From contig JANJGN010000052.1 in assembly GCA_026770705.1 (NCBI GenBank), forward strand, positions 1,736,001 through 1,800,000: 64,000 nt of DNA. Reading direction: 5' to 3'. The stretch is from Isurus oxyrinchus. Its lineage: Eukaryota. The notes beneath the pieces are model-generated. The model saw nothing but the letters and a program-made list of their open reading frames with translations. It did no database searches and was not told the DNA's origin. Positions 8,300-62,271 of this stretch are shown in pieces; position 1 is the first letter of the stretch; every line of letters begins with the position of its first letter. Position numbers and translations under genes: made by a program.

Positions 8300-8439
8300 T
8301 CAAACAGTCTGTCGACTTCCTTTCACTGTTTGTCTCTCCCAGACACAGACTCCAGCGATAGTGATAACCACAGCCACAAGGAATATCACAGCTCGTATTC
8401 CCAGGATCAGGATCACATGCAGAATCTCTCCTCCACTGT
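8300..8439 (-). CDS. Gene A terminal TM exon: (H)SGGEILHVILILGIRAVIFLVAVVITIAGVCVWERQTVKGSRQTV*
   Basis: Acceptor ttctttctgtgtgctctctag; phase 1 matches the upstream Ig exons; long hydrophobic segment with one Arg; TGA at 8300-8302; no Tyr in the tail. Not in the ORF track. Confidence 0.8.
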
Positions 8440-9557
8440 CTAGAGAGCACACAGAAAGAAATCATCACTGACTCTCTGCTTTCAATCTCTCACTCTGGCT
8501 GAACAATCAAGCTTCATATCACTGCAACATTTGCTGTAATATTGACCCATCCACTGGGATTCAATGTGGAATGAATGTTTTCATTGTAAACACTCGAAGA
8601 GTGGACAATCGGAACTTTCCCCTTAGCGTGGAACATTGGTGAGAATGGATCATTGTGCTGTTGGACTCCCTGTCCAATGTTTCTCTCCATCGCTGTGTAC
8701 AGGATTGTGCTGTAGAAAATTCTGGAAACGTTTAGTGCAGGGTGGAAATCCATCTCGGACGTGTGTGCGAATCGGGCAGGATCGAGATGGACTCCCCCAC
8801 GGACTTACAACCCCCGCTTAATAAACAGTTCCAATCTTTACCCAGAGAGAGAGGAGAATGTGGAACTCGCTCCCACAGGGAGTGGTCGAGGTGAATAGTA
8901 GCAAATTAGGATGGGAAATTGCTTGAAAAGCTAGGAGATGCAAGGGTTAAGTGCTACCGTGCCACCACTGGTGGGAGAGTGTAACTACAGCGTGACGTTT
9001 ACATAGGCAATCCCCATTATGAACTTGGACATTGGACATCATGTGCAAAATGGGCTCTGGAAAGGTGAGAACATGATGTAAGCTTTTCACCAACAGAAAT
9101 TCCTTCGTAAACCTCTCCATCTCTCTCTTACTGTCAGATACTCAAACAACATTTCACACAGAATTACATAAGGAGGAGTTGGGACAGGTGACTGGTCAAA
9201 GGGTTAGATTTCAGGAAGCTTTTTAAAGGAGGATAGAGAGTTAGAGAGGCAGAGAGTATCTGTGAGAATCTCTGTGCATCTGGGTGTCTAATAGACTTTG
9301 CAATTTCCGCATTCTTCCATAAACTTGAAAGGGAATACAACTCCCAGAATCCATGTCAACTCTCCGGTGCAGCACTGAGGGAGGTCAGGTAACCCACGGG
9401 GGAGAATGTGTTAGTGTGTTTGTTTGTGAGTGTGTCCTTTTGTGTGCTCATACATGTGGGATTGTGTGTCTGCACGTGTCTATTTAGGTTTGTATAATTG
9501 TCTGTGTTTGTGTAGTGTTTGAATCTGAGAGAGCTGTTGAAGTCTGTGTACACTCAC

Positions 9558-9737
9558 GTTCCACAGTGATGGTTATGAACCCCTCCACTGCTCCATGTTC
9601 ATTCTCTGCCACACACTGATAGTCTCCAGTGTCCCTGGATGTAACGTGAGGAATCACCAACCACAGCTCATTGTTGGAACTTGTTCTGTTCATTGTGATA
9701 TTCAGATGTCAGGGCAGGACTCAACATGACAGATCAC
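9558..9737 (-). pseudogene. Gene A degenerate membrane-proximal Ig (C2/I-set) exon remnant
   Basis: ICHVESCP, frameshift, then HLNITMNRTSSNNELWLVIPHVTSRDTGDYQCVAENEHGAVEGFITITVE with a GTGAGT donor; DTGDYQC F-strand motif; C-strand Trp region missing and no recognisable 5' part. Confidence 0.75.
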
Positions 9738-10033: not shown

Positions 10034-10330
10034 CTTACACAGTTAGTATGAGGGTCCGCTCCGATGAAACAGATGGATATCTCACTCTGCAGCTGAGAGT
10101 GTGTCCGTGGTGTTGGAGTGATGGGATCAGGGTCAGAACAGAAGTATAGGTCAGAGTGACACCATGCTGAGTTACAGTGTTTGAGACTGATCCAGGTACA
10201 TCAGTGGCAGTGTCCCAGGTTAAGACAGGTGCTGCTGTTCCATTGCACGTTGTGTTGAAGGTGCAGCTTACATCCATACGCTTTCCTGCAATAATTTCAG
10301 CAGGGAATATCATGGGTTTATCTGTGAAAT
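10034..10330 (-). CDS. Gene A Siglec C2-set exon, ending in a premature TAA
   Basis: DFTDKPMIFPAEIIAGKRMDVSCTFNTTCNGTAAPVLTW...LSCRVRYP...LTV*; 297 nt, phase 1-1; paralogues read CAA (Gln) at the stop position. Confidence 0.9.
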
Positions 10331-11143: not shown

Positions 11144-11512
11144 CAGAAACGTGAAGCTGGGTTACAGGGTAATAGTTATGGCTCGGACCATTGTCAAATT
11201 CTATCCTGAAAAAATAAGGTCCTGCATCTTCCCGTCTGATGTTGTTTATAATCAGGGAACAGTCGCCATCTTTCAGGTTTCCAGACAGCCAGGTCCGATG
11301 GTGGAACCGTGGTAACTCGTGACTGTGATCCTTGGAGTGAAAGGCAATGGGAGCCCAGGGAATCTGTTTCTCATTATTAAACCAGAGTCCACCTCGCGGT
11401 TGGTTTTCCAGACACGATGGATAACTGTAATGACAAGGAATCTGTACACACGAACCTTCCTGCGCTGTCACCTCTCGTGGAGTGTCACCGTTCCACTCTT
11501 GTGAGGGTTCAA
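11144..11512 (-). CDS. Gene A Siglec V-set exon V2 (essential Arg present, YFFRIE)
   Basis: AG/GT-flanked 369-nt phase 1-1 exon; EGSCVQIPC, GDCSLIINNIRREDAGPYFFRIE Siglec V-set motifs. Confidence 0.92.
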
Positions 11513-11569
11513 CTGGGGAGAGAAATCTCAATATTTAACTCTGGATGGTTTGTGGATCCACTAGACTCA

Positions 11570-12400
11570 AATTTACAGATGAGGCTGAATTGGGGGGATG
11601 GTCAATACTGAGGAGGACTACAACAAATTATTTTGGCAGGAAGAATAGAAAAACAGGATATTATTTAAATGGAGAGAGGCTGCTGAATGCAGTACAGAGG
11701 GATCTGGGTGTCCTTGTACATGAATCACAGAAAGTCAGCATTCAGGAACACCACGGAATGAGGAAGGCAAGTGGAACGTTGGCCTTTATTGCAAAGGGAT
11801 GGAGTATAAAAGGAGGGAAGTCTTGCAACAGCTGCACAGGGTGAGATTATATCAGGAGCAGTGTGTACAGTTCTGGTCTCCTTACTTAGGGAGGGATAGA
11901 CTCTGCATTGAAGGCAGTTCAGAGGAGGTTCACTGGGCTGATTCCTGGGATTAAAGGGTTTGTCCTGTGAGGAAATGTTGAGCAGGTTGGGCCTGTATCC
12001 ATTGGAGTTTAGAAGAATGAGGGGTGACCTTATAGAAACATATCCGATTCCGAGGGGGCTTGACAGGGTGGATGCTGGGAGGATGTTTCCCCCTCGTGGG
12101 GGAATCTAGAACCAGGGAGCACAGTTTCGGAATGAGGGCTCTCCCATTCAAGACTGAGATGAGGAGGAATTTCCTCTCTCAGAGGGGCGCTAGCCTGTGG
12201 AATTCTCTTCCCCAGAGAGCAGTGGAGGCTGGGCCATTGAATAGACTCAAGGCTGAGTGAGGCAGGTTTTTGATCGACAAGGGAGTCAAGGGTTTGGGGA
12301 ACAGGCAGGAAAATGGAGTTAAGGCCACAACCAGATCAGTAGAGCAGGCTGGAGGGGCCGAATGGCCTGCTCCTGTCCCTATTTCTTATGTTCCTACATT
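11570..12400 (+). mobile_element. CR1 LINE 3' fragment in the V1-V2 intron (mirrored at 40985-41810)
   Basis: QRDLGVLVHESQKVS...LWNSLPQRAVEA motifs and CR1 tail. Confidence 0.85.
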
Positions 12401-12469
12401 CTTACCTTCTTAAAATATTAAAGCTGCAGAATAAACATGCAAGTGACTGACCCGCTCGACCCACCTTCC

Positions 12470-13435
12470 ATCAGGGGCTGGAGGAGGTTACACAGATAGG
12501 GAGGATTGTGGGGGCTGTAGGAGGTAACAGAGATAGGGAAGGCTGTAGATACTGGAGGAGGTTACGCAGAGAGGGAGGGTGGTAGGACCTGGAGGAGGTT
12601 GCAGAGATAGGGAGGGCTGTAGGGATTTGAGGAGTTTATGGAGATGGGGAGCGTGTAGGGACTGGAGGAGGCTGCAAGGGCAGAGAGGGTTTTAGGGGCA
12701 GGAGGAGTTTACAGGGATAGGAAGAGTTGTAGGGGCTGGACGGATTGCAGAGGTAGGGAGGGTTGGAAAGGCTGGTGGAGGTTCCAGAGGTAGGGAAGGT
12801 TGCAGGGACTGGAGGAGTTTACAGAGATGGGGGAGTTTTTGGGGCAGGATGGGGTTACAGAAATAGGGAGGTTTGTAGGGGCAGGACGAGGTTAGATAGA
12901 TATGGAGTGTGGCTGGGGCTGAGGGAGGCTACAGAGATAGGGAGGGTTATAATGGCTGGAGGAGGTTACAGAGATAAAGGAAACTCTTAGGGACTGGAGG
13001 AGGTTACAGAGATAGGGAGGGTTGTAGTGGGCTGGAGGAGGTTACAGAAATATAATGGGTTGTAAGAGATGGACCAGCTTACAGAGATAGGGAGAGGTAT
13101 TCGGTCTGGAGGAGGTTGCAGAGATAGGGGAGGTTGTTAGGACTGGAGGAGGCTACAAATATCGCGAGGGTTATCGGGGCTTGAGGAGGTTAAAGAGATA
13201 GGGAGGGGTGTTGGGTCCAGAGGAGTTTGCAGTGATAGGAATGGTTTTCGGGATTGGAAGAGGGTACTGAGATAGGAGGGTTGTAGGGACTGGAGGAGTC
13301 TCCTGAGATAGGGAGGGTTGTAGGGACTGGAGGAGGCTCCTGAGATAGGGAGGGTTGTAGGGACTGGAGGAGGCTCCTGAGATAGGGAATGTTGCCGTGG
13401 ATGAAAATAAAGGAGGAGATTACTGTAATAGGGAG
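12470..13435. repeat. ~37-bp degenerate minisatellite (ggggctggaggaggttacagagatagggagggttgta)
   Basis: Tandem G-rich units adjoining an L2-like LINE; shorter mirror copy at ~39795-40090. Confidence 0.8.
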
Positions 13436-13439
13436 GAAC

Positions 13440-14390
13440 AATATTCAAAAATTTGGACATTGAGACTTTGCTTGACCAGGAGCCAGTCTCGGTCATCGAG
13501 CAGAGCGGATGATAAGGGAACGGGACTAGGTGTGAGTAAGGACGTGGTCAGCAGTTTTGGATGGCCTCAAGTTTATGGAGTGTAGAGCGTGTGTTGGAAC
13601 AGTCGAGTCTGGAGGTAATGAAGGCGTGGATGAGGGTTTCAGCAGCAGATGAGCTGAGACAGGGTGATGTCATGCGATGTTACGGAGGTGGAAATAGACG
13701 GTGTTAGTGAGGGCGCAAAATGGAGGCCGGAAGCTCATCTCAGGATCAAATGGGACAACAAAGCTGTGAACAGATTGGCTTCAATCTCAGAGAGCTGCCA
13801 GGGAGAGGAATGGAGTTGGTAGCGAGGGAACAGAGTTTGGAGTGGGGAATGAAGACAATGGCTTCAGTCTTTCCAATATTTAATTGGAGGGAATTTCTGC
13901 CCATCCAGTACTGGATGTCGGATAAGCAGCCTGATAATTTAGCAGCAGTGGAGGAGTCGAGAGAGGTGGTGGTGAGGTAGAGCTGGGGATCCTCAGTGGA
14001 CAGGTGAAAACTAACACTGTTCAGATGATGCTGCAAAGCCATTGCAAGTGATTCTCTGGCTACGATGAGATGGATAAGAATGGAGCCAGGGGAGAGCAGT
14101 CCCACCCAGCTGGACGACAGTGGAGAGGTGTTGGAGGAGGATGGTGTGGTCGAGCGTGTCAAAGGCTGCAGACAGATCGAGAAGGACGAGGAGGGAAAGT
14201 TGACCTTTGTCACAGTCACACAGGATGCCATTTGTGACCTTGATAAGAGCTGTTTCAGCACAGTGGCTGGGGTGGGAACCTGATTGGAGGGATTCAAACA
14301 TGGAGTTCCGGGAAAGATGGGAACGGATTCGGGAGATGGAAACACGTTCAAGGACTTTGGAGGGGAAAGAGAGGCTGGAGATGGGACGGG
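13440..14390 (-). mobile_element. L2-like LINE RT fragment (mirrored at 38840-39790)
   Basis: RPISSL..SKVLERV, HCAETALIKVTN, LLVLLDLSAAFDTLDHTILL, LQLNIGKTEAI motifs. Confidence 0.85.
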
Positions 14391-14665
14391 AGATTACACA
14401 GGCAGTGTGAGGGGTGGAAGGTGTAGTGAGGAGGAGATACTTCACTCAGGTGGGAGGTGTCATCACCCCTCAGCTCGGTTTACGTTACAGCTATGATGTG
14501 GATTCAATCAGACACAATAAGCTCATGGATCTGGGAGCAGAAATAGGCAAATCATTAAAAATAGTGACGCTGGTTAACACGGCCAAAAAACAAGCAAATC
14601 AAACACTATTATTTCCCATTGAGTGTTGGATGTGAATTGTTGAGTAATTATAACACAGCACTTAC

Positions 14666-15043
14666 CAGAAACGTGAAGCTGGGTTTCAGGGTAATAGTTA
14701 TGGCTCGGACGATTGCCAAATTTTATCGTGAAAAAATAAGGTCCTGCATCTTCCCATCTGATGTTGTTTATAATCAGGGAACAGTCGCCATCTTTCAGGT
14801 CTCCAGACAGCCGGGTCCGATGGTGGAACTGTGATAACTCGCGACTGTGACCCTTGGAGTGAAAGGCTATAGACCATTTAGACCATTTGTTCCGTATGTA
14901 TCTTCTCATTTTCCAGATTCCGACCTGTGGTTTCTTTACCAAATCTGATGGATAACTGTAATGACATGGAATCTGTACACACGAACCTTCCTGCGCTGTC
15001 ACCTCTCGTGGAGTGTCACCTTTCCACTCTTGTGACAATCCAA
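14666..15043 (-). CDS. Gene A Siglec V-set exon V1 (essential Arg replaced by Thr, YFFTIK)
   Basis: 378-nt phase 1-1 exon, VGLSQEWKGDTPREVTAQEGSCVQIPC...PETQLHVS. Confidence 0.92.
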
Positions 15044-15299
15044 CTGGGGAGAGAAATATCAATATTTAATCTGGATGTTTTGTTGATCCACTAGACTCGA
15101 TATCCACCTCCTCCATCACTCGGGCACAGTGGCTGCAGTGTGGACCATCTATAGGACACACAATGAACCCCACAAGGTTTCACACCGGATGGAAGAGAAT
15201 CCTGGACACAAAAGCGGAAAAGTTCATTCTACATTGGTTCATGGTCCTCAGGACCCTGTTTGTGCAGAAGCCTGTTCTCCAACAGAACTGAAGTTGGGG

Positions 15300-16958
15300 A
15301 CAATGCATTTGGAATTCCACTGTCCGGGGCATTGGGTTAACTTGCTGATTTTGTTTTAAATCTAACATCTATTTTTGGTCTGTTGCCTTAAAGGGAGTGT
15401 GACTGGGAGTCAGGTTAATTAGGAATTTTAGGAGTTATGATAGCAGTAATTGTAGTTATGTATGTGCTTGAAATCTTTTATTTTGATGACAAATATGTTA
15501 ATTTATTGTTTTAAATCTCTAAAGGTATGGGGGAGTTATTGCTTCTGAATTAAGTGCACACATCTCATAATAAATACAAATTGCAAAATCATTATGATAG
15601 TGTGACCAGGTTTCTCTCAAGGACTTGGTCTGCCTGGCACACATCACCTGCCAAGTGATAACACTGTTGTAATATGCCTTTCAGGGACAGCAGCATGACA
15701 TCACTCGAGGGGAAGTGTGTCATGTGATTTTTAGGAACTGGTGTTCGCTTAAGTAAGTTCTATGTGTATTTGTGTGCATTAGGCAAAAGGTCTATCTTTA
15801 AGTTCAAGTTTAGTTTGTATTTCTGTATTTGGGTGTTGAGAAAAGGGTGAACTTGTGTTAAAAAGAAGCCAGCATTCCATTGAGGTTTAATGACTGTTGA
15901 AGGGAAGTCAAAACAAATACAAGGTGTAAGAAACTGTGCTGTTGCCTAGCAACAGTGATGCAGAGGGTAGGACTCACAGAGAGAGAGAAAAACAGAAAAG
16001 TACTTTCTGTTCTGTTGAAAGGAGTTGCCAGGAGAAGCAGCAAAGGAGCGGGACAGATAGTCAGTCCCAAAGTAAAGAAGAAGCCAAAACTATAGAGTTT
16101 GACAGGAGAAAGGGCCCAAGAAAACCTTCTAGTCAAATCTGGAAAAGGCCCTGTAAAGTGAAGTTAAGAGTGAGGAGCAGAAGAAGGCTTCAAGCATAAA
16201 GGGAGAAAGCAGCAGGACACAGGCCTAAAGCAAAATAGGCTTGCGAGAAGCCAGAAGATCCTGGGAGACACCACAGGTTGGTGACTCATTACTACGGCCA
16301 TGTGAAGCCATGGTGTTCCATTGACACGGCTGAGCATTGGAGAGACAGGGCGTGGAAGGAAGGCTGAATGCACGTGGCGATCCAGGGGGCAGGAACATGG
16401 GAAGGAGAGTTTGAAATAGTGAAAGTGGACCCTTGTGGAAGGTGTCTGAGTGAAAGTGTCATGTTGGAGGAGACTCCAAAGTGAGTTCTTGGAGAGTGGA
16501 GATTGGAAACTCTCATATGAAAGAAGCTTTTCAGTGAGACTGGTTGGCTCACAGTGTAACAAGCGTCTGGGGACAAATGAGACATAGAATTTGTTTCAAG
16601 TGGGCTCTGCCACTTGCTTTCAGAATGTGGCATCCCTGACCACAGGTCGTCTATTGGTTTACATCGACTGTGTACTTAGTGTGAACATGAGAGTATAAGA
16701 TAGTTACAGTAACTTGTGTTCTACTTATGAATCTTTAAAGGGATAGATCTGGGTGAATCAGTAATGTCATATAGTTTGTCTTTCCTAGTTTAATAAATGT
16801 TTTATTCTTTTGTTAGAAGTTCATCAGATGACTCCTGTGACTCTGTTCAGTAGCCGCACTCCACATTCCTAAATAAAAAATAAAAGTTAGGACCTATCAA
16901 GCTGAGTTCCACCCTGGGATCTGACTTGCCCAGTAGTAACATCAGCTGGGATGGTAAC
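15300..16958 (+). mobile_element. LTR-like repeats (two adjacent pieces each ending ...taaca), mirrored at ~36236-37930
   Basis: tgttg...taaca ends, AATAAA boxes, no coding capacity. Confidence 0.45.
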
Positions 16959-16984
16959 ACCATCCAGTCCAAGTCTCACTTTGG

Positions 16985-19900
16985 CCTGTGAGCAGAACAC
17001 AGCTCACACAGTTTGGCCGCAGGTGTCTCCCAGCTTTCTATCCTTGTATATCTGTTCTTATGTCCCTATTCTAAATAACTGAACCCACAATGTATTTACC
17101 CAATTCCGTATCAGTGGTTGGTGCCTTTATATCATTATAAAAACACAACATGGTGATCAGCGGTGGCCAAACATTCTGGCAGCAAGATTCAGTACAGGTA
17201 TGACGTGGTGAACAGCCTTAGATCGAGCTACATGACATGAGACGACCCTCGACGCTTTGGTCAGACCACAACAGAGACACAGCATCAGAGAGGGTTGAAA
17301 TTGCAGTGTACTGACTGCTCAGGAAACCTTTGAAGACACAGTGACGGGAAAGAGCTCAAGTAAAGAGCTGGGGAGCAGACGGATCCCTCGTGGTGAGATT
17401 ACAGCACACGGCCTGTAGGTCAGTGAGTGGGACAGTGTGTATCGCCAGGACCAGCAGCGGGTTAGCTCAGTCAGGGAAGGCGAGTGACCAGAGTGTGGGC
17501 TGGATCGATAGTGAGCGAGGGAGAGTCAAACACACAAAAACCATTATAAAAATCAGCCCAGAGAAGTTAGTGATTATAACGGGCGGCTTCGAGATTGCTG
17601 AACAGCAAATTGAATAAAAAACAAAGACTCCATTACTCCGTGGTGTGTTCCTGCCACAACCCGTCTCCGTGGGCGGAGCTTCGGAAAAGCACACAAAAGG
17701 GGCTAAAGCGACACTCATCCCAGATCCTGTAGGAGAAGGAAGGTCAAAGGAATATTGTCAGAATGTCCACAAAATTCCCCAGTTTGAACTGGGATGTAGC
17801 TGACCGACTATCTGAATTCAGAATGTTTAAACAGCGTACAGAGCTCTGGTTTCCTGATTCAGGTGTGACTGAACCAGACGAACCACCCATAAAAATTCAC
17901 CTCACGATTGGGAATGAAGGTCTACACAGGCTGAACACGTCAGGATTAACAGCAGAAGAGCGAAAGGATCCCCAATAGATATGGACGACATTGGAAGACA
18001 GGTTCAGAATCAGGTGAAACTCCATATTCATCAATTAGAGTTTATGTCATTTCATCAGCCTACACAATCCATAGACCACTTCATCAGCCGATGTAGAGAA
18101 AAGGGTACGCACTGTGATTTCAAACACAGAGCCTGCAGACACAGTTGTTGAGTTGGTGATCGCATCCACTCCCATGGAAGCCTTCCAGAAAGATCTGCTA
18201 GATAAGACCAAAACCTATAGCATTGAAGAGCTACTCAAGGATGGACATAAATACGAAGTGATCCTCGCAGGTCAACGAAGATTACAGGTCCTCAGTACAA
18301 CATAAGTTGTTGACACACTCACTAGAACATCCAAACCTAGTGAGACGTGTGGAAGGTGTGGCCTTCTGCAGGCACCAAGGAAATGCCCAGCTTTCCACCA
18401 ATCCTGCAAGGCTTGTGGCAGAAAGGGCCATTGACAGTGGCAGGGCACTAGTGCAAAGGCTGATGCAGCTACAAAGAGCCGTGCACTGATCCAAACAGAC
18501 CCTACACAACGGGGAACCTTCAATCAATAAGAATGACCATCCGCTATCCCATCAGGAACATATACATGTGGTGACTGACAAACCAGGAAATGGCGATGAT
18601 GTACATGGTGAGACGAGGAGCGGTGATCGATATTCCACCTCTCACACATATCCTGACGTGGCTTGCCAATAAATTGTGGATTGTTGTCCTTAATGATCTC
18701 TCTGGGCACATCAAATAAACTGAAAATGTCCCAATGGGGTGGGATTTTCTGGCCCCACCCACTGCCAGGATTGCCCGGTCCGGCCAAAAGCCAATGGATT
18801 TATATTTGTCCCTATCTCCCAGGCAGGTCCCACCATGACTGGGCCGGAAAACCCCGGCCTAGAGTTTGTGCAACATTTGTGCTCAACGTTTTGTGCAATT
18901 GTTGAACAATTTCACACCTTTTACACCATCAATCTAATGGAGAACAGATGCCGTCACATCACCCGCACTATTGGCCAAGATTCCAATTATCTGCCCTGAG
19001 AAAGTTGCTACCTCTCCTTTATTGGCCAAGATTGACACAAGGGCAAGTGCCAACATTCCCCTCCCCCCGACCACCCCAGCAAATTTTCAAAGACATGTAT
19101 CCAAGGACATGGAAGTCCATGGGGAAACCTACTGCTGTGTACAACACTTCACCAACTCCATGTGCGGAATACATAGTCCTGGGGTGCAAGTACAATCAAT
19201 CCTCCTGGGTGTCACAGATGTTCTACATCGTGGAGACTAAAGGCTGAGCAATTGCAAGTCTACCGGCATGCGGTGACCTCACACTAGTGACAATCCATGG
19301 AATCTGTCAGACCTCACATGGGTCAACCTCAGAAACTACCCCATCAACTCAGTTCATGGACATAACATTGAAATATGCAGAAAGTTTCAACAGTATTTGC
19401 AGTTTCAAGGGAGCTGCAACATTACACCTGCAGGAGAATGCAAGTCTGTCAATTGATCCAGTACATTTAGCACAACAGAAATGCCAGCATCTACAAGAGG
19501 GGACAGTGAAAAATTCTACAGGAAATGTGGAAATATCATTGAAAGGGTGGCCTGATTCAACTTGATGTCATCGGGATAAGCGAGGCATCTCCCAGGGAGT
19601 CATTTTTAATGGCAGGCATCGCATCATACCAGAACCTTTGTGATGATATATTCTTCAACAACTTCATCCTTCACACATGGGCACAGATCAGACAAGGAGA
19701 CTCCCAAGAGATACAGTCCCTGGCCGGGTATAAACAATGACCTTGAAGTCATTGTAGGGAAGTTCGAGGCTTGTCAAGAGGATGAGCCAAGTCAACACAA
19801 AGAACCACTGATTCCACAGGAAATTCCTGCCCATTCTTAGTCCAAAATCACATCTGAATCCTTTCATGTCCATGTCACTGACTTCATCGTCGTCGACAGC

Positions 19901-21000
19901 TTTACCAGATATCCCGTTATTCAAAAATAGCACAACACACCGAGCACAACTGCTGCTTACACTCTAAGCACTATTTTCAGTTTATTTGGTGAGCCTAGGG
20001 ACATGATTACAGATAATCTGGAATATCAATCACACTACTTCTTCTCCTCATTACCCCAGATCTAACAGCCTAGCTGAATGAATGATTCACACAGTGAAAT
20101 CCCTAATTCTCAAATGTAGACAGGCCAAGCAAGATCCACACATTGCAATGTTACATCTGAGATCGACACCTACAACTGCAACTTTGTTAAATTCATTCAC
20201 GGGATGTGGGAGTCACTGGCCAGGCCAGGATTTATTACCCATCCCTAATGTAAGAATCAACCACATTGACGTGGAGTGTGGAGTCACATGTCGGCCAGAC
20301 AATTTTGTTCCCTAAAGGGCACTGGTGAACCAGGTCGGATTTCCAACAATCGTTTTGTGGTCATCACTGGACTTTGAATTTCATCTTTTTATTTATTTCA
20401 AATTCCATCATCAATTATGGCAGGATTTGAACCCATATGCTCAGGACATTACCCTGGGTCTCTGAATTACTCATCCAGCAACAATACCACTACACCATCA
20501 CCTCACCTTATTCCATCACTGACAGAGAGCATGTTTGGTGGGCCAGTAGTGACCAATTTCGCTATTCTTACCCATTCTACTCTCTCAGAAACCAGAGCGC
20601 AACTTTTAAAACTACAAGAGAAGATAAGGAATGTTCATGATCAAAATTATGGTGCAGAGTTGCCAAGTTTACAGTTGGGACAAGTTCACATCCAGGATCC
20701 CACAGAAGGTTCATGACCACCAGCTGAGGTGACAAGGATTTGTTCAGAACCAAGGGCCTATGGAGTCAAACACACAAGGGCACAGCGGTGAGGCGGAACC
20801 GAGGATAAATCAGATCCATTCCTGCTCCTATTCCATCGAGGAGAAGATCCCACATGAAATCAGGAACAACATCCAAGGGTGACAATCCCACAGATCACTG
20901 TGAGCAGTTAAAGACACCTCCAGACAAGGTAACCAGCATAAGATCTGGGTGTACCAGAAGGTCAAATCCACACTTTAGAGACTCAAATATTCAACAGTTC
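16985..21000 (+). mobile_element. Degenerate Ty3/Gypsy LTR retrotransposon (gag, Zn knuckle, protease, integrase relics)
   Basis: Gag-like MSTKFPSLNWD...FRMFKQRTELWF; CGRCG...CPAFHQSCKACGRKGH knuckles at ~18345-18430; KIDTRASAN protease-like motif; WPGINNDLE..ACQE and SSPHYPRSNSLAE integrase motifs; many stops. Confidence 0.8.
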
Positions 21001-22034
21001 CGTACACTTATGTAATTGTCAATAAATATGAACATGATATGAGAAACCGCTTGCTCCCTGTCCTTCTCAAAGATCCATTCCTGCAGCAGGAGCCTGAAGA
21101 GTTATTGAAAAGGGACTTAATTTATCGGATTGTCGAATGATCTGGAACAGAAGGAAGCCATTTGGCCCATCGAGCCTGTGCTGGGCCTTTGAAAGATCTG
21201 TCCAATTATTCCCACTCTCCCCTCTGCTCTCTCCCCCACAGCCCTGCAAAATGTCCCCTTCAAGTATTTATCCAGTTCCTCTTCTGAAAATTCCTGTTGA
21301 ATCTGCTTCCACCGCCCTTTCAGGCAGTGAGTCAATGGTCTCTCTCTGAGCTGCAAAGTGATAAGTTTCAATGAAATATAAACTCTGCAGCAGATCAGAA
21401 ACCATCATGATAACTCAGAATATTTGACAGTTTTACATACAGACAGCTTTGCCTCCCTTCTCTCTATCAGTTATCTTGCTCCCTTATCGAATTTTCTAGC
21501 ATGGTGAGAAGGGACAGGAAGTGTGACGCTGAACTGCCTGTCTAATCTAAGAGCTTCTGTGTTGTCTTCATGGGAAATTCTGATGAAAATCAGCAAGAGA
21601 GAAAAATTTCAGGGCATTGATATCGGAGTGCTAGCATCAGGATAGACTTCATCCCCCAGTTTTTATCCCTGCTTCTCTATTCAGCCGATCGCTCCCCTGT
21701 CACTCGCTGACCTACACTGGCTCCCAGTCCAGCAATAACTCAATTTTCAAAATCTCTTCATTGATTCCTTATCCCTCCATCCTCCCTCTCCACTCCCTAT
21801 CACTGTCACTTCCTCCAGCCCTGAAACCCTTTGAGGTCTCTGCTGTCCTCCAATTCTGCTGTCAGACAGGGAGTCAGTGTATATCAGTGAGCACAGGGGT
21901 GATGGGTGAATGGGACTTGGTGTGAGTTTGTACACTGGCTCACTGCTGAACCGGTTCCCTATCAGAGCTCAATAAGAATGATCTTTTACAAAGACTATTA
22001 GCCATAAGTCTGTCCAAGCTGACGATGATATTAC

Positions 22035-22074
22035 CTTGGAGAAGTGACAGGAGGAAGTAAGATTTCCCGATCAC
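22035..22074 (-). pseudogene. Gene A signal-peptide exon with start codon mutated to GTG: (V)IGKSYFLLSLLQ
   Basis: Matches the four plus-strand leader exons except ggacaGTGatc in place of ggacaATGatc; GT donor intact. Confidence 0.85.
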
Positions 22075-22524
22075 TGTCCACTCCCAGATATTCCTTTAGC
22101 TTCTGACTCTCAAACTGTGAAAGAGAAAGGAGTTAATGAGACTTCACCTCTTGTCCGACAGCTCTCGAGAGATCAGAACTGCTTTTAGACATTGTCTACA
22201 CAGACTAATTTGGTTCTCTGTGGGATGATAGGTGCTCTGCAGAGAGTTAAAAAGCTTTAAAAAAATAGATCAATGAAGGACTTGCATTTCTATATCGCCT
22301 TTCACCACCTCAGGATGTCCCAAAGCTCATGTCTCTGCACTTCCCTCATCCCTTGAGCTAGAAAGATGTTCTGTACAACAGACTTGAGCCTCACACCCAG
22401 ATCACAATAATCAGTAGAAATCTTTCAAAGGCATCAATCATTGGAATCTGTTTTTATAAAGTCACAACATCAACAAAGGACGGTGTTGGTGGTGGAAGTG
22501 AATTCCAATCATTCCGTTACTTAC

Positions 22525-22670
22525 CCAGGACCTGTCCGACTGCTTGCCTGGGGAGGAACTGCCCACACGCTCTGCTTGGGCTGAATGACCTCTTCCTGTG
22601 CTGCTGCCTCTGTGTATTTAATGAGAAAGGGTTGATGTGTCACTGTGAGACAAAATGAGGAAGTTGGATC
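22525..22670 (-). promoter_or_regulatory. Gene A putative promoter and non-coding exon 1
   Basis: Conserved block ending in the strong donor ggtcctgg|gtaagt; PU.1/Spi-type site AAAATGAGGAAGT at ~22652-22664. Confidence 0.6.
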
Positions 22671-22904
22671 AAAGTGACAGAACAGGTCGTGTTTTGAGTT
22701 TTTTGAAGCTGTTAACCCTTTGCGTTCTGGACTTGTGATGATATTTCTGCTCAAAAGTGTAAAGTCATTGACCAGGAATTTCTCCTGTGTGTCACTGGAT
22801 TTCGAACCCTCTCTCTCTCTCTGAGTGAGAAGTTCGTCAGTTCGAAATTCATTTGGCAAAATTCAGGCTGGCAAACCAGACCGGCACTCGGTGTCAGGAC
22901 TGAG

Positions 22905-23170
22905 AGTCCTGCACAGTCGGAGAGTCAGTACTGACTTAGTGCTGCACTGTCGGAGGGTCTGTACTGCGAGTGTTGCACTCTGGGTGTGCCAGTGCTGAAG
23001 GAGTGCTGCACTGTCAGATGGTCAATGCTGAGGGAGCGCTACACTTTTCAAGCATCAGTACCTAGGGGCTGCTGCACTATCAGGGGCTCATGACTAAGGG
23101 ACCACTGCACAGTCGGAGGGTCCGTACCCAGGGAATGCTGCACTGTCGCAGGCTCAGTACCGAGGGAGTG
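22905..23170. repeat. 33-bp minisatellite, degenerate, upstream of the gene A promoter
   Basis: About 8 diverged units; positional mirror of 31590-32010. Confidence 0.85.
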
Positions 23171-23199
23171 CAAACTAAAGTAGTGACAAGGGTTGAATA

Positions 23200-31589: not shown

Positions 31590-32010
31590 GATCCTCTGAC
31601 AGTGCAGCACTCCCTCAGTACTGATTCTCCAACAGTGCAGCACTCCCTCAGTACTGTCCCTCTGACAGTGCAGCACTCCCTCAGTACTGATTCTCCAACA
31701 GTGCAGCACTCCCTCAGTACTGATCCTCCAACAGTGCGGCACTCCCTCAGTACTGACCCTCTGGCAGTGCAGCACTCCCGCAATACTGAGCCTCTGACAG
31801 TGCAGCACTGCTTCAGTACTGACCCTCCAACAGTGCAGCACTCCCTTAGTACTGACCCTCTGACAGTGCAGCACTCCCTCAGTACTGACCCTCTGGCCGT
31901 GCAGCACTCCCACAATACTGAGCCTCTGACAGTGCAGCACTGCTTCAGTACTGATCCTCCAACAGTGCAGCACGCCCTCAGGAATGACCCTCTGACAGTG
32001 CAGGACTCTC
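31590..32010. repeat. 33-bp minisatellite upstream of the gene B promoter
   Basis: About 12 units. Confidence 0.95.
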
Positions 32011-32229
32011 AGTCCTGACACCGAGTGCCGGTCTGGTTTGTCAGTCTGAATTTTGCCAAATGAATCTCGAACAGACGACCTTCTCACTCAGAGAGAGAGA
32101 GAGGGTTTGAAACACAATGACACACAGCAGAAATTCAATGACTTTCCACTTTTGAGCAGAATTATCATCACAAGTCCAGAACGCAAAGGGTTAACAGCTT
32201 CAAAAACTCAAAACATCAGCTGCATTCTC

Positions 32230-32380
32230 ACAAAGTGACAACTACCACATTTTGTTTCACAGTGACACATCAACCCTTTCTAATTAAACACACAGAGGGA
32301 GCAGCACAGGAAGAGGTCATTCAGCCCAAGCAGAGCGTGTGGGCAGTTCCTCCCCAGGCGAGCAGTCGGACAGGTCCTGG
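32230..32380 (+). promoter_or_regulatory. Gene B putative promoter and non-coding exon 1
   Basis: Homologous to the other exon-1 copies; donor GTAAGT at 32381. Confidence 0.6.
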
Positions 32381-32830
32381 GTAAGTAACGGAACGATTGG
32401 AATTCACTTCCACGACCAACACCGTCCTTTGTTGATGTTGTGACTTTATAAAGACAGATTCCAATGATTGATGCCTTTGAAAGATTTCTACTGGTTATTG
32501 AGATTTGGGTGTGAGACTCAAGTCTGTTGTACAGAACATCTTTCTAGCTCAAGGGATGAGGGAAGTGCAGAGACATGAGCTTTGGGACGTCTTGAGGTGG
32601 TGAAAGGTGCTATAGAAATGCAAATCCTTCAATGTTTTTCTTTCTTAAAGCCTTGTAACTCTCTGCAGAGCACCTATCATCCCACAGAGAGTCAAATTAG
32701 TCTGTCAAGACATTGTCCAAAAACAGTTCTGATCTCTTGAGAGCTGTCGGACAAGAGGTGAGGTCTCATTAACTCCTTTCTCTTTCAGAGTTTGAGAGTC
32801 AGAAGCTTATGAAATATTTGGGAGTGGACA

Positions 32831-32870
32831 ATGATCGGGAAATCCTACTTCCTCCTGTCACTTCTCCAAG
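32831..32870 (+). CDS. Gene B signal-peptide exon MIGKSYFLLSLLQ
   Basis: Acceptor at 32787-32788, ATG at 32831, phase-1 donor GT at 32871; joins in frame to the V exons. Confidence 0.85.
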
Positions 32871-33899
32871 GTAATAACATCGTCAGCTCGGACAGTTTTA
32901 TGGCTAATAGTCTTTGTAAAAGATCATTCTTATTGAGCTGTGATTGGGAACCGATTCAGCAGTGAGCCAGTGTACAAACTCACACCAAGTCCCATTCACC
33001 CATCACCCCTGTGCTCACTGATATACACTGACTCCCTGTCTGACAGCAGAATTGGAGGAGAGCAGAGATCTCAGAGGGTTTTAGGGTTGGAGGAGGTTAC
33101 AGGGATTGGGAGTGTAGAGGGGGGATGGTGGGGTAAGAAATCGATGATGAGAATTTGAAATTTGAGTCATTGCTGGACTGGGAGCCAGTGTAGTTCAGCC
33201 AGTGACAGGGGAGCGATCGGCTGAATAGAGAATCAGGAACACCAACTGGGGGATGAAGTCTATCCTGATGCTGGAACTCGGATAACAATGCCCTGAAATT
33301 TTGTGTCTTTTGCTGATTTTGTCAGAATTTCCCATGAAGACAACACAGCAGCTCCTAGAATAGACAGGCTGTTCAGTGTCACACTTCTGTCCATTCTCAC
33401 CATGCTAGATACTTCAATAAGGGAGCAAGATAACTGAAAGAGAGAAGGAAGGTAAAGCTGTCCGTGTGTAAAACTGTCAAATATTCTGAGTTATCATGAT
33501 TGTTTCTGATCTGCTGCAGAGTTTAAAGTTCTCAGAACATTAGCACTTTGCAGCTCAGAGAGAGACCATTGACTCACTGCCTGAAAGGCCGGTGGAAGCA
33601 GATTCAACAGGAACTTTCAGAAGGGGAACTGGATAAATACTTGAAGGGGACATTTTGCAGGGCTGTGGAGGAGAGAGCAGAGGTTAGAGTGGGATTAATT
33701 GGACAGATCTTTCAAAGGCCCAGCACAGGCTCGATGGGCCAAATGGCATCCTTCTGATCCGGATCATTCTACAATCTGATAAATTAAGCCCCACATCAGT
33801 AACTCTTCAGGCTCCTGCTGCAGGGATGGATCTTTGAGAAGGACAGGGAACAAGAGGTTCCTGGTATCATTTTCATATTTCTTGACAATTACATAAGTG

Positions 33900-36235
33900 T
33901 ATAGATCTGTTGAATATTTGAGTCTCTAAAGCGTAGAGGTAATCTGCTGTTATGTCGAGATCTTGTGGTGGCAAAATTGTCTGGAGGTTTCTTTAATTGC
34001 TCACATTGATCTGTGGGATTGTCATTCTTCGATGTTGTCCCTGGTTTCAATTGACATTATACCCTTGATGCAATTGAGGAGGCTTTAAACTAATATGGCA
34101 GGGGATGGGATCCCAAGAGGAGGTTCAACAGAGAGAGATGCACAGCCAAAATTAGAAGAGAGCAAATGAACCTGGAAGGCATAGAAATTATTGGCCATTT
34201 AAGGCTCAAGATAGCGTGGCAAAGTTGGATTGTATTAATTTTAATGCAAGGAGACTGACAGACTTGCATTCTCCTGCAGGTGTAATGTTGCAGCTCCCTT
34301 GAAACTGCCAATATTGTTGAATCTTTCTGCATATTTCAATGTTATGTCATGAACTGAGTTTATGGGATAGTTTCTGAGACTGGGACAGACATAAATCCAT
34401 TGGCTTTCAGCCGGAACGGACAATCTTGGAAGTGGGTGGGGCCAGAAAATCCCACCCCTATGGGAACATTTTCAGTTTATTTGATGTGCCCAGAGAGATC
34501 AATAAAGACCACAATCCACAATTTATTGGCAAGCCACGTCAGGATATGTGTGAGAGGTGGAATATCGATCACCGCTCCTAGTCTCGTCATGTACATCATC
34601 GCCATTTCCTGGTTTGTCAGTCACCACATGTATATGTTCCTGATGGGATAGCGGATGGTCATTCTTATTGCTTGAAGTTACCCCGTTGTGCAGGGTTTGT
34701 TTGGATCAGCGCACGGCTCTTTGTAGCTGCATCAGCCTTTGCTCTAGTGCCCTGCCGCTGTCAATGGCCCTTTCTGCCACAAGCCTTGCAGGATTGGTGG
34801 AAAGCTGGGCATTTCCTTGGTGCCTGCAGAAGGCCACACCTTCCACACGTCTCACTAGGTTTGGATGTTCTAGTGAGTGTGTCAACAATTGATGTTGTAC
34901 TGAGGACCTGTAAGCTTCGTTGACCTGCGAGGATCACTTCGTATTTATGTCCATCCTAGAGTAACTCTTCAATGCTATAGGTTTTGGTCTTATCTAGCAG
35001 ATCTTTCTGGAAGGCTTCCATGGGAGTGGATGTGATCACCAACTCAACAACTCTGTCTGCAGACTCTGTGTTTGAAATCACAGTGCGTACCCTTTTCTCT
35101 ACATCGGCTGATGAAGTGGTCTATGGATTGTGTAGGCTGATGAAATGACATAAACTCTAGTTGATGAATATGGAGTTTCACCTGATTCTGAACCTGTCTT
35201 CTATTATCGTCCATATCTATTGGGGATCCTTTCGCTCTTCTGCTGTTAATCCTGACGTGTTCAGCCTGTGTAGACCTTCATTCCCAATCGCGAGGTGAAT
35301 TTTTATGGCTTGCTCGTCTGGTTCAGTCACACCTGAATCAGGAAACCAGAGCTCTGTACGCTGTTTAAACATTCTGAATTCAAATAGTCGGTCAGCTACA
35401 TCCCAGTTCAAACTGGGGAATTTTGTGGACATTCTGACAATATTCCTTTGACCTTCCTTCTCCTACAGGACCTGGGATGAGTGTCGCTTTAGCCCCTTTC
35501 GTGCGCTTTTCCGAAGCTCTGCCCATGGAGACGGGTTGTGGCAGGAACACACCACGGAGTAATGGAGTCTTTGTTTTTTATTCAATTTGCTGTTCAGCAA
35601 TCTCGAAGCCGCCCGTTATAATCACTAACTTCTCTGGGCTGATTTTTATAATGGTTTTTGTGTGTTTGACTCTCCCTCGCTCACTATCGATCCAGCCCAC
35701 ACCCTGGTCACTCGCCTTCCCTGACTGAGCTAACCCGCTACTGGTCCTGGCGATACACACTGTCCCACTCACTGACCTACAGGCCGTGTGCTGCAATCTC
35801 ACCACGAGGGATCCGTCTGCTCCCCAGCTCTTTACTTGAGCTCTTTCCCGTCACTGTGTCTTCAAAGGTTTCCTGAGCAGTCAGTACACTGCTATTTCAA
35901 CCCTCTCTGATGCTGTGTCTCTGTTGTGGTCTGACCAAAGCGTCGAGGGTCGTCTCATGTCATGTAGCTCCATCTAAGGCTGTTCACCACGTCATACCTG
36001 TACTGAATCTTGCTGCCAGAATGTTTGGCCACCGCTGATCACCATGTTGTGTTTTTATAATGATATAAAGGCACCAGCCACTGATACGGAATTGGGTAAA
36101 TACATTGTGGGTTCAGTTATTTAGAACAGGGACATGAGAACAGATATACAAGGATAGAAAGCTGGGAGACACCTGCAGCCAAACTGTGTGAGCTGTGTTC
36201 TGCTCACAGGCCAAAGTGAAACTTGGACTGGATGG
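33900..36235 (-). mobile_element. Mirror copy of the Gypsy relic (16985-21000), internally deleted
   Basis: Near-identical gag ORFs at 35217-35432 and 17763-17978; most of the protease and integrase region is missing. Confidence 0.8.
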
Positions 36236-38175: not shown

Positions 38176-38562
38176 TTGGACTGTCACAAGAGTGGAAAGG
38201 TGACACTCCATGAGAGGTGACAGCGCAGGAAGGTTCGTGTGTACAGATTCCATGTCATTACAGTTATCCAGCACTTCTAGTAGGGAGAGCACGTGTCGGA
38301 ATCTGGTATGTGAAATGGTACACATGGAATACATGGAATACAAGGTCTAGAGGGACCATAGCATTTCACTCCAAGGATCACAGTCGCGAGTTACCACAGT
38401 TCCACCATCGGACCCGGCTGTCTGGCGACCTGAAAGATGACGACTGTTCCCTGATTATAAACAACATCAGACAGGAAGATGCAGGATATTATTATTTCAG
38501 AATAGAATTTGACAATGGTCCGAGCCATAATTATTACCCTGAAACCCAGCTTCACGTTTCTG
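38176..38562 (+). pseudogene. Gene B V-set exon V1 with nonsense codon (CGA>TGA at 38211-38213)
   Basis: 387-nt phase 1-1 exon, VGLSQEWKGDTP*EVTAQEGSC...YYYFRIEFD; the four paralogous V exons have CGA (Arg) at this codon. Confidence 0.88.
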
Positions 38563-38839
38563 GTAAGTGCTGTGTTATAATTACTCAACAATTCACATCC
38601 AACACTCAATGGGAAATAATAGTGTTTGATTTGCTTGTTTTTTGGCCATGTTAACCAGCGTCACTATTTTTAATGATTTGTCTATTTCTGCTCCCAGATC
38701 CATGAGCTTATTGTGTGTGATTGAATCCACATCATAGCTGTAACGTAAACCGAGCTGAGGGGTGATGACACCTCCCCCCCGAGTGAAGTGTCTCCTCCCC
38801 ACTACACCTTCCACCCCTCACACTGTCCATGTAAACCCC

Positions 38840-41870: not shown

Positions 41871-42236
41871 ATGAACCCTCACAAGAGTGGAAAGGTGACA
41901 TTCCACGAGAGGTGACAGTGCAGGAAGGTTCGTGTGTACAGATTCCGTGTCATTACAGTTATCCATCGTGTCTGGAAAACCAACCGCGAGGTGGAGTCTG
42001 GTTTAATAATGAGGAACGGGAAACATCGTCTATAGCCTTTCACTCCAAGGATCACAGTCACGAGTTACCACGGTTCCACCATCGGACCCGACTGTCTGGA
42101 GACCTGAAAGATGGCGACTGTTCTCTGATTATAAACAACATCACACGGGAAGATGCAGGACCTTATTATTTCAGAATAGAATTTGACAGCAGTAATAGTT
42201 ACAACTACTATCCTGTAACCCAGCTTCACATTTCTG
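41871..42236 (+). CDS. Gene B Siglec V-set exon V2 (essential Arg present, YYFRIE)
   Basis: 366-nt open phase 1-1 exon flanked by AG/GT. Confidence 0.93.
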
Positions 42237-42607: not shown

Positions 42608-42904
42608 ATTTCACAGATAAACCCACGATATTCCCTGCTGAAATTATTGCAGGGAAGCGTGTGGATGTAAGCTGCACCTTCAACACAACGTGCAATGGAA
42701 CAGCAGCACCTGTCTTAACCTGGGACATTCCCACTGACGTACCTGGATCAGTCTCAAACACTGTAACTCAGCATGCTGTCACTCTGACCTATACTTCTGT
42801 TCTGACCCTGATCCCATCACTCAAACACCACGGACACAATCTCAGCTGCAGAGTGAGATATCCATCTGTTTCATCGGAGCGGACCCTCGTACTAACTGTG
42901 CAAG
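42608..42904 (+). CDS. Gene B Siglec C2-set exon
   Basis: 297 nt, open; DFTDKPTIFP...VSCTFNTTCNGTAAPVLTW...LSCRVRYP...LTVQ. Confidence 0.92.
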
Positions 42905-44300: not shown

Positions 44301-45377
44301 GTTCCTGATCTCTCAGTTCCGCACTGGATCACTCTGGATCACTGTCCTGGTTTTTGGGCTGTGTTGAAACATTCAGTTTGGACTCTCTTTAAAACCGATC
44401 TCTTTGACAAAGCTTTTGGTGAAACAAACATACGAACACAGGAATGAGGAGCAGCAGGAGGCCACTCAGCCCCTCGAGCCTGTTCCACCTTTCCATAAGG
44501 TCATGGATGATCTGATTGTAACCTCAACCCCACATTCCCTGCTCACCCTTGATGACCTTTCACCCCTTTGTGAATCAAGAACTTATCAAGCTTCACCTTA
44601 TTCTCCCTGTCAAAATGGACAATTTCATCTTTTCCCACGTTATACACTATTTGCCAGATTTTGCCCATTCACTTAAAACTCTGTGTCACTTTGTAGGCTC
44701 CTTATGTCCCCTTCACAAGGTCATCTGTCCCTAACATCACCTCAGCTGACTCAGGGTCTAGACAGGTTTTAGTCAACAGTGAACAGGCAGAAATTGGAGT
44801 TTGATTAATAACCAAATATTTCATTGATAAAATTATCAATAATTGTTACATTGAAAAGGGTGACCTGTATTTATTGAATGATCAGATTGTCCCAAAACAC
44901 TTTACAGTCAATGAGATATATTTGAAGCAATGTCATGTTGTAATGTAGGAAATACGGCACCAAAATGTGCACAGCAAGATCCCACACAAGGTGACAGTGA
45001 TCTGATAATGGATTATTTTAGTGAGGTTGGTTGATACGTATATAGAAATCACATGTATAGGGTGGGTCACTAATGTCCATTTAGTGAGGAAAACCTGTCC
45101 ATTTTAACAGGTCTGGGTGTATATGTGACTCCAGTCTGTAACACCAACATGGTTAACTCTTACCTGCCCTCTGAACTGGTCTCCCAGTTTGGGACAAACC
45201 AGTGGTTCAGGAGGAAGACCCCCCACCACCTTCTCAAGGGGAAACTAGGGATGGACAATAAATGTCAGCATTGCCCGAGAATGAGTATTTAAACACTGAG
45301 TGAGTGTATCGCTTCTCGAGATACATCGGAGCATCATTGTAAACCTGTAGTGCAGTAATTAATGGCTGTTTTTACAG

Positions 45378-45474
45378 GTAGAGACTCCAGTAAATGGACA
45401 GTAGGATTGTTCACGGCTGGGATCATGTTGAGTGTTTTACTGGCTGGAATCTTCATCTTCATCTGTGTGAGAAA
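45378..45474 (+). CDS. Gene B TM exon: GRDSSKWTVGLFTAGIMLSVLLAGIFIFICVRK
   Basis: Acceptor tttttacag; phase 1 to phase 2; uncharged hydrophobic helix followed by a basic stop-transfer; GTAAGT donor. Confidence 0.88.
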
Positions 45475-45989
45475 GTAAGTCTGAAGATTTAACTTGATTT
45501 TAATATAAACATTTGCTTCAATGCTCTTTCCTTAAGTCGGTGATTGTTTCCCTTGGGATCAGCACCAGGTCCCTCTCTGTAAGTGATCCCTCTGTCCACT
45601 ATGATCCGGAGAGAATCTTTCATTGTCCTGTATCCAGGTAAACAATCACGAGACCCAGAGATTCCTCACTCTGCACGATTACTCCTGGATTGTATCAGGT
45701 CACCTTGTGATTCCACACAAGCGGAGTGACCACACCCCGATGATTGGTTCATTCACCGGGAACGGCTTTGCAATGTTTCAGGGACTTGAATAAGTAACTG
45801 CACATTCCCACGTTGTATCTGCCTCTCTCTGATTTAGATTCACAGGGATGATATCAGAACTGAGAGGTTATAACCATCACAAGGATTGAACAGTCTGGGT
45901 AGTGGGACTAACTGGACAGTTTTTACAAAGGGCCAGCACAGGCACGATGGGCTGAGTGGCTTCTTCCTAAGAAGATTTTAAATCCCTTC

Positions 45990-48206: not shown

Positions 48207-48455
48207 GGTAAACAGAACATGCTGATTACTGAGCCCCGGAACACAACCAGAGACACAACTAGCGAGGGGGAGACCCCAGCTCCCCGGGGTCTCTCTGAAG
48301 GTCCAGTGGGAGGCGATGCTGGACATGGGAACGCTGACAATCCCGACGAGCTTCTCTACGCCAATCCCCAAGTCTTCAGGGTGCCCAGTGGTGATGGGAC
48401 TGTCCACAGGGAAGAGGAGACGGAATACGCACAGATCAGATTCAAGCGAAACTGA
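48207..48455 (+). CDS. Gene B terminal cytoplasmic exon with Tyr motifs ELLYANP and TEYAQI
   Basis: Acceptor tttctctgtag; phase 0; GKQNMLITE...DELLYANPQ...EETEYAQIRFKRN*; resembles CD33-related Siglec and L-MAG tails. Confidence 0.88.
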   Translation, partial: GKQNMLITEPRNTTRDTTSEGETPAPRGLSEGPVGGDAGHGNADNPDELLYANPQVFRVPSGDGTVHREEETEYAQIRFKRN

Positions 48456-54576: not shown

Positions 54577-54616
54577 ATGATCGGGAAATCTTACTTCCTC
54601 CTGTCACTTCTCCAAG
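54577..54616 (+). CDS. Gene C leader exon copy 1: MIGKSYFLLSLLQ
   Basis: Intact ATG, acceptor and donor. Confidence 0.75.
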
Positions 54617-56343: not shown

Positions 56344-56383
56344 ATGATCGGGAAATCTTACTTCCTCCTGTCACTTCTCCAAG
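56344..56383 (+). CDS. Gene C leader exon copy 2: MIGKSYFLLSLLQ
   Basis: Intact ATG, acceptor and donor. Confidence 0.75.
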
Positions 56384-58108: not shown

Positions 58109-58148
58109 ATGATCGGGAAATCTTACTTCATCCTGTCACTTCTCCAAG
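58109..58148 (+). CDS. Gene C leader exon copy 3: MIGKSYFILSLLQ
   Basis: Intact ATG, acceptor and donor; closest copy to the V exon. Confidence 0.8.
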
Positions 58149-61206: not shown

Positions 61207-61575
61207 TTGGACTGTCACAAGAGTGGAAAGGTGACACTCCACGAGAGGTGTCAGCGCAGCAATGTTCGTGTGTACAGATTCCATGTCATTACAGTTATCC
61301 AGCAAAATTTGAAAACCAACCGCGAGGTGCACTCTGGTTTAATAATGAGAAACAGATTCCCTGGGCTCCCATTGCCTTTCACTCCAAGGATCACAGTCAC
61401 GAGTTACCACGGTTCCACCATCGGACCCGGCTGTCTGGAGACCTGAAAGATGGCGACTGTTCCCTGATTATAAACAACATCAGACGGGAAGATGCAGGAC
61501 CTTATTTTTTCAGAATAGAATTTGACAATGGTCCGAGCCATAACTATTACCCTGTAACCCAGCTTCACGTTTCTG
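61207..61575 (+). CDS. Gene C Siglec V-set exon (Arg present, YFFRIE; extra Cys in QQCSC)
   Basis: 369-nt open phase 1-1 exon. Confidence 0.93.
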
Positions 61576-61974: not shown

Positions 61975-62271
61975 ATTTCACAGATAAACCCAAGATATTC
62001 CCTGCTGAAATTATTGCAGGAAAGCGTGTGGATGTAAGCTGCACCTTCAACACAACGTGCAATGGAACAGCAGCACCTGTCTTAACCTGGGACACTCCCC
62101 CTGACGTACCTGGATCTGTCTCAAACACTGTAACTCAGCATGGTGTCACTCTGACCTATACTTCTGTTCTGACCCTGATCCCATCACTCAAACACCATGG
62201 ACACACTCTCAGCTGCAGAGTGAGATATCCATCTGTTTCATCGGAGCGGACCCTCGTACTAACTGTGCAAG
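61975..62271 (+). CDS. Gene C Siglec C2-set exon; gene continues beyond the window
   Basis: 297 nt, open, AG/GT-flanked. Confidence 0.92.

Follow-up and report, generated by a model that had tools for sequence, protein, structure and literature searches.

Siglec-12 is described as the only Siglec with two V-set domains, the others having one (available text of PMC7876704). In the primate protein, the tandem V domains stand before C2, both carry the A'B Cys, the tail has a tyrosine motif and the sialic-acid Arg has been lost in some V domains (available text of PMC7876704 and PMC6288428); the shark genes reported here are alike in all these respects. They are unlike it in number, as primate Siglec-12 is a single gene with a fixed set of two V domains whereas the shark has hundreds of genes with 1-10 V. 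They also differ in the BC loop, since V2 of the Rhinopithecus protein (P0227) reads CSVLYPHYNW and has no BC-loop Cys. The shark multi-V genes and primate Siglec-12 probably have separate origins, and the name 'lectin 12' given to shark homologues in databases is automatic.

According to the available text of the respective papers, the V and C2 domains of a Siglec are joined by a disulfide: C37-C165 in MAG (PMC5150538), C36-C169 in CD33 (PMC6669322) and C46-C172 in Siglec-6, in which Cys mutants lost glycolipid binding (PMC10122656). The isolated V domain of CD33, with C36 free, forms disulfide-linked oligomers (PMC6669322). The donor in these proteins precedes the B-strand Cys by five residues (MAG C37; CD33 C36, with C41), and the domain that follows supplies the acceptor (C165, C169, C172). 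The shark V-C2 pair has both Cys, but the shark also has a predicted acceptor in a V-set domain, at +7 instead of +6 and repeated along the chain. No solved structure with a V-set +7 acceptor was found.

Paired Siglecs (Siglec-5/14, -11/16) have near-identical ectodomains followed by either a charged transmembrane (TM) segment with a short tail or a tyrosine-motif tail, and gene conversion homogenises the ectodomains (available text of PMC6288428 and PMC13358205). The shark genes are alike in both points and unlike in their scale (at least 497 C2 motifs) and variable V number. For fish, the available part of PMC7226832 names four regular Siglecs and contains no mention of sharks; that of PMC8455134 only lists Siglecs among the gnathostome Ig families. 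No literature on shark multi-V Siglecs or on their BC-loop Cys was found in our search; subscription journals and supplements were outside it and may bear on the matter.

A Siglec-like gene cluster in Isurus oxyrinchus

The stretch analysed (hereafter the window) comprises 64,000 nt of the Isurus oxyrinchus assembly GCA_026770705.1 (contig JANJGN010000052.1, 1,736,001-1,800,000, forward strand). It is part of a very large cluster of Siglec-like paired receptors. Exact patterns gave minimum counts for the genome of 637 for V motifs, 497 for C2 motifs and 252 for Cys-type V motifs, haplotype duplicates possibly included. Arrays were surveyed in the window and the next 1.6 Mb (1.664 Mb in total; contig C52 1.74-3.40 Mb), which gave 111 V hits, 58 C2 hits and 61 gene units. 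The number of V exons per gene ranged from 1 to 10 in tandem with a single leader upstream, and 27 of the 61 units were multi-V, with 2-10 consecutive V exons. That V2 might be a gene of its own was ruled out, as no leader exon was present inside any of the 27 arrays. In 17 of the 27 multi-V genes, the leader had ATG and its donor, and the V and C2 exons were intact. The gene with ten V and one C2 (C52:2279608-2299939; L048-L050) has a frameshift in V2. In those with seven V (C52 1871385-1888650) and six V (C52 3108914-3123306), each with one C2, the V and C2 exons are intact. The V copy number of the longest arrays is given as assembled; an assembly artefact is an unlikely origin of the arrays, as copies within an array differ and three to five V in series occur in other species.

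The V exons of the window and the C2 exons of genes A and B have AG/GT ends and phase 1 (Table 1), and every V exon is phase 1-1, so that any of them can be skipped in frame. The tails are of the paired type, with either a TM exon with Arg and a short tail (22 copies, Arg in 21) or an uncharged TM and tyrosine motifs. Contigs from related organisms' runs showed leader-V and V-C2 joined at intron ends in three of four runs; these runs are RNA by guess and contain fewer than half of the words, which makes them relatives or paralogues. No V-V joint was present among the 15 listed of 754 joints in these contigs. In gene A, position 22035 is joined to 15043 in contigs from related organisms, with intron ends at the joint. 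The window V2 matches proteins of sharks and rays, the identity reaching 96% and being greatest for lamniform sharks, and the V2 protein of gene A is encoded identically at four further sites of the genome.

Table 1. Coordinates of the exons and Cys codons of genes A, B and C, as positions in the window
Feature	Position	Strand	Remarks
Gene A leader exon, coding part	22035..22074	-	xIGKSYFLLSLLQ; GTG at the ATG of paralogues
Gene A V1 exon	14666..15043	-	YSYPSD; A'B, B and E Cys; no BC-loop Cys; Thr at F-strand Arg position
Gene A V1 A'B Cys	14979-14981	-	Proposed donor to V2 BC-loop Cys
Gene A V2 exon	11144..11512	-	YSYPSC; four Cys; F-strand Arg present
Gene A V2 B-strand Cys	11433-11435	-	BC-loop Cys 7 residues after
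Gene A V2 BC-loop Cys codon (TGT)	11412-11414	-	Candidate acceptor for V1 A'B Cys
Gene A C2 exon	10034..10330	-	BC-loop Cys at +6 (CTFNTTC); in-frame TAA 10035-10037 at end
Gene A transmembrane exon	8300..8441	-	Activating type: Arg within the membrane span, short tail
Gene B leader exon, coding part	32831..32870	+	ATG intact
Gene B V1 exon	38176..38562	+	YSYPAL; no BC-loop Cys; in-frame TGA 38211-38213
Gene B V2 exon	41871..42236	+	YSYPSC; BC-loop Cys codon 41969-41971
Gene B C2 exon	42608..42904	+	Intact
Gene B uncharged transmembrane exon	45377..45475	+	tblastn with C-terminus of P0013
Gene B last cytoplasmic exon	48207..48455	+	Two tyrosine motifs (LLYANP, TEYAQI); resembles the inhibitory type
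Gene C nearest leader exon, coding part	58109..58148	+	
Gene C single V exon	61207..61575	+	YSYPAK; no BC-loop Cys; private extra Cys 61263-61265
Gene C C2 exon	61975..62271	+	

As assembled, genes A and B are damaged copies, gene A by its GTG and the TAA, gene B by the TGA in V1. The GTG was the sole case among 67 leader exons, 59 of which had ATG and an intact donor. These lesions, like the Thr in gene A V1, had been missed in the initial annotation of the window. Intact paralogues exist: a twin of gene A elsewhere on the contig (C52 about 307-319 kb; L179/L180) has ATG, an identical V2 protein and an open C2. The exon list of gene B is possibly incomplete owing to masked stretches in the window. 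Genes A and B form a head-to-head inverted duplication (13103-23171 versus 31739-40086, 88-92% identical) with opposite signalling tails. Between the C2 and TM exons of gene A lies an Ig exon recognisable in its 3' half only (9553-9708, minus strand). Upstream of gene C, the leader exon is present three times in a tandem triplication of about 1.77 kb (54521-58162, plus strand).

The best PDB sequence matches of the window V2 were Siglec-7, -5, -8, sialoadhesin, CD33 and MAG (E ~1e-13 to 1e-11), and a modelled V was overlaid on sialoadhesin with Z 17.7 and an rmsd of 1.9 over 115; both point to an N-terminal V-set domain of the Siglec type. The five V exons of the window have the B-E rather than the B-F Cys pattern (IPC...DCSL, no F-strand Cys). 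The E Cys was present in 86/86 intact V, from which a B-E bond is predicted. The inter-domain cysteines that link V to C2 in Siglecs (A'B Cys and C2 BC-loop Cys) were also found: the A'B Cys in 108/108 V of the 1.664 Mb and the +6 Cys in 53 of 58 C2 hits, the other five being four unread by the pattern and one with a stop. The F-strand Arg essential in Siglecs is present, gene A V1 being without it, and the predicted proteins are type I membrane proteins with an ITIM-like tail or a charged TM. A model of V2-C2 (from a homologue; pTM 0.67) was overlaid on d1-d2 of CD33 and Siglec-10 with an rmsd of 2.7-3.3.

Position and descent of the BC-loop cysteine

The initial annotation had reported that both window V2 exons read IPCHYSYPSC, with a Cys at +7, that this Cys is absent from both V1 exons and from the V of gene C (YSYPSD, YSYPAL and YSYPAK) and that the extra Cys of C2 is at +6 (CTFNTTC). 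All of this was recovered in the sequence, each C2 of the window having the +6 Cys. The association with position across paralogues, which it had raised as a point to survey, was borne out in the 108 scorable V (of 111, three fragments being left out). The BC-loop Cys was present in 50/50 non-first V, 0/27 first V of multi-V genes and 3/31 single V of the 1.664 Mb. This is no chance distribution (50/50 non-first versus 3/58 first V); the Fisher p of 1e-27 overstates the number of independent events because the V copies have common ancestry. The three Cys-bearing single V were all broken (stop or lost acceptor). As an adversarial check, 17 solitary-looking Cys-bearing V in the rest of the contig were inspected: 13 had a Cys-less V upstream, and the four that were truly first were broken (4/4). 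Seven N-terminal carriers were thus found on the contig, all broken, from about two lineages. The annotation had held that a Cys in N-terminal single V would speak against its reading; such carriers do occur, but with every one of them broken its substance stands. As support for the position rule the dead carriers are weak and only suggestive, other first V being broken in 16/55. One exception was seen, an intact non-first V with Tyr replacing Cys (L178). At L171:1244-5660 (minus strand), a V with His, a 45-base C2 remnant, a V with Cys and a C2 follow each other, an array apparently derived from a deletion between two genes.

In 47/47 intact non-first V, the Cys was found in a single 5-base haplotype with the same two silent neighbours. 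These constant neighbours indicate a single origin of the Cys in this lineage, so that the counts from the genome are not independent. An intron site at -41 was linked to the Cys nearly as strongly. In the interval between intron and Cys, the exon markers at positions 4-8 were common to first V in about one-third of non-first V, and FG-loop and C-C' types were found in first and non-first V alike. On these markers, the rest of the exon has been exchanged between positions while the Cys stayed with its position. A tree was computed from 57 V domains chosen from 199, with the Cys column and its neighbours masked. The Cys label needed eight changes, three of them forced by well-supported branches. 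A single clade of Cys-bearing V was marginally rejected (p-AU 0.044), recombination making the tree approximate. Within one gene, V1 and V2 differed at 4/122 residues (97% identical), one of which was His/Cys. The eight tree changes and these four differences indicate that the exons were homogenised with the Cys fixed to position.

Non-first V were intact in 47/50. Their pN/pS was 0.64 (0.46-0.93) versus 0.92 in first V of multi-V genes, values calculated from intact exons only and thus biased towards constraint. Selection best explains a residue that, in the sequences compared, is common to sharks and rays and yet differs between neighbours 97% identical. The initial annotation had seen the Cys as a local gain specific to V2 and as a sign that V1-V2-C2 proteins were made and selected. 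Selection on the Cys by position is supported, but genes A and B are broken, with no intact V1-V2-C2 as assembled. Neither the local gain nor the restriction to V2 could be upheld, as the Cys is an old feature common to sharks and rays and occurs at all non-first positions in arrays of up to ten V. From sequence comparison, the Cys is real, old and position-specific in a large shark Siglec-like family.

The F-strand Arg was present in 46/47 intact non-first V, 14/15 single V and 13/24 first V of multi-V genes, and so lost in 11/24 intact first V of the latter. The first V of multi-V genes were far more diverse than non-first V.

Occurrence in elasmobranchs and other vertebrates

Among 97 database proteins, the Cys was present in 34/45 distinct V following a V, in 0/64 N-terminal V and in 1/17 unclassed V, the last in a model without signal peptide. 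It was found in 0/29 readable single V of 32 additional proteins. Carriers belonged to 11 species, nine sharks (one a sawshark) and two rays, the sharks being galeomorph and squalomorph; in the database models of 11 species, which are predicted proteins, V domains stand in series. The 11 Cys-less non-first V among the 45 include three domains of one fused-gene-like model and V2 and V4 of ray four-V models. In P0011 (Mobula) and P0014 (Hypanus), the Cys-less V2/V4 have another Cys after strand C (W-x-KDEC), which is absent from a related single V (P0083) and is possibly a second route for pairing a spare thiol.

Only elasmobranch proteins were among the 120 matches listed in the homologue search. 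A profile search added 130 new proteins, nine of them with adjacent V-like domains: by name, monkey Siglec-12, a turtle, five frogs, a lungfish and a gecko. In none of these nine did a later V have the +7 Cys. The frog and turtle models (P0147, P0178, P0181, P0209, P0250, P0238) are like the shark genes in having two or three V in series and the A'B Cys, and unlike them in having no +7 Cys in later V, some frog V2 having other extra Cys. Because the tandem-V Siglecs of monkey, turtle and frogs keep the A'B Cys without the +7 Cys, the BC-loop Cys is, on this comparison, dispensable for a tandem-V receptor as such, and tandem V occur beyond sharks too. Among the proteins searched, the BC-loop solution was seen in elasmobranchs only. 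V2 of frog P0181 and P0209 differs from V1 in an additional Cys close to the FG loop; a convergent acceptor is possible there.

Proposed pairing of the cysteines

The BC loop is at the N-terminal pole of an Ig domain, towards the preceding domain, and the A'B Cys and BC Cys of one domain are at opposite ends of strand B. A bond between these two Cys inside the same domain is ruled out by this topology. We consider it likely that the BC-loop Cys of a non-first V is the acceptor for the A'B Cys of the preceding V, by which the V chain would be stapled link by link. Gene anatomy, the position rule and its spread over sharks and rays were observed, and the Siglec V-C2 bond is taken from the papers cited above; the V-V disulfide and the splicing of V exons in series are inferred. 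The V exons of an array would be spliced one after the other, each added V contributing one donor (A'B Cys) and one acceptor (BC-loop Cys). As all V have the A'B Cys, each added V would bring a free thiol unless the next V has an acceptor; with the BC-loop Cys present, donors equal acceptors at any V number. The acceptor in the next V would take up the otherwise unpaired A'B thiol, and a bond like that between V and C2 in Siglecs would recur from one V to the next. The Cys may have been retained for using up the spare thiol of an added V and for stiffening the stalk. A V1-V2 model (from a homologue; pTM 0.48, linker pLDDT <50) was overlaid on Siglec d1-d2 with an rmsd of 4.9-6.9 over 200-213 residues. 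On JAML, a non-Siglec tandem domain pair, the fit was equal to that on Siglecs (6.8-6.9), and on most other two-domain hits the rmsd was 10.7-17.6. The modelled arrangement is roughly head-to-tail as in Siglecs, which is compatible with a V-V bond without demonstrating it.

The Cys could instead join two receptor chains, or a chain and another protein, as a covalent dimer. Bonding of C36 between chains of isolated CD33 V domains (available text of PMC6669322) and the tolerance of a spare A'B Cys in the tandem-V Siglecs of other vertebrates would fit such a role. It would explain neither why the Cys is absent from first V (0/27, 0/64), although the tip is most exposed, nor the count of one donor and one acceptor per added V, and it would leave n-1 A'B thiols free. 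We regard an inter-chain bond as improbable. Somewhat less credit is given to V exons as alternative cassettes, one V per transcript, with the Cys marking a differently used N-terminal class: in-frame skipping is feasible with all exons in phase 1-1 and no V-V joint was among those listed, but the seven first-position Cys-bearing exons are all broken and the predicted database proteins have V in series, so that this is very unlikely.

Between these two in probability, and still quite improbable, is a neutral founder mark, a Cys of single origin in an ancestral V2 exon that all downstream copies inherited through its nearness to the position-specific 5' intron. The single haplotype with its silent neighbours, the almost equal linkage of the -41 intron site and the marginal test against one clade are what would be expected of it. 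Against it, the Cys is common to rays and to galeomorph and squalomorph sharks while V1 and V2 are up to 97% identical, and in about one-third of non-first V the markers between intron and Cys are common to first V. The shark-ray split dates back at least 250 million years, and a neutral codon would not outlast this time span together with such homogenisation.

If the stapling of each V to the next is true, it would be a clear case of a compensating Cys making domain duplication tolerable, and the BC-loop Cys gives a one-residue handle on how multivalent Siglecs are built. The picture of early Siglec evolution would be altered by a shark cluster with paired Siglec-like genes in their hundreds, each of 1-10 V, and with a position-specific Cys kept since the shark-ray split. 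More tentatively, elasmobranchs might possess a self-stapling V module, in which exon duplication alone would lengthen a Siglec into a rod of as many as ten V chained by disulfides. The inner domains would keep the sialic-acid Arg for avidity, and the outer V1 would diversify, often drop the Arg and sense other ligands, in hundreds of paired activating and inhibitory genes.

Of 18 intact multi-V genes, 14 had an even total of Cys in their V and C2 domains, and the remaining four had one private extra Cys each. The private Cys in the V of gene C is two residues before the A'B Cys and gives an odd Cys count.
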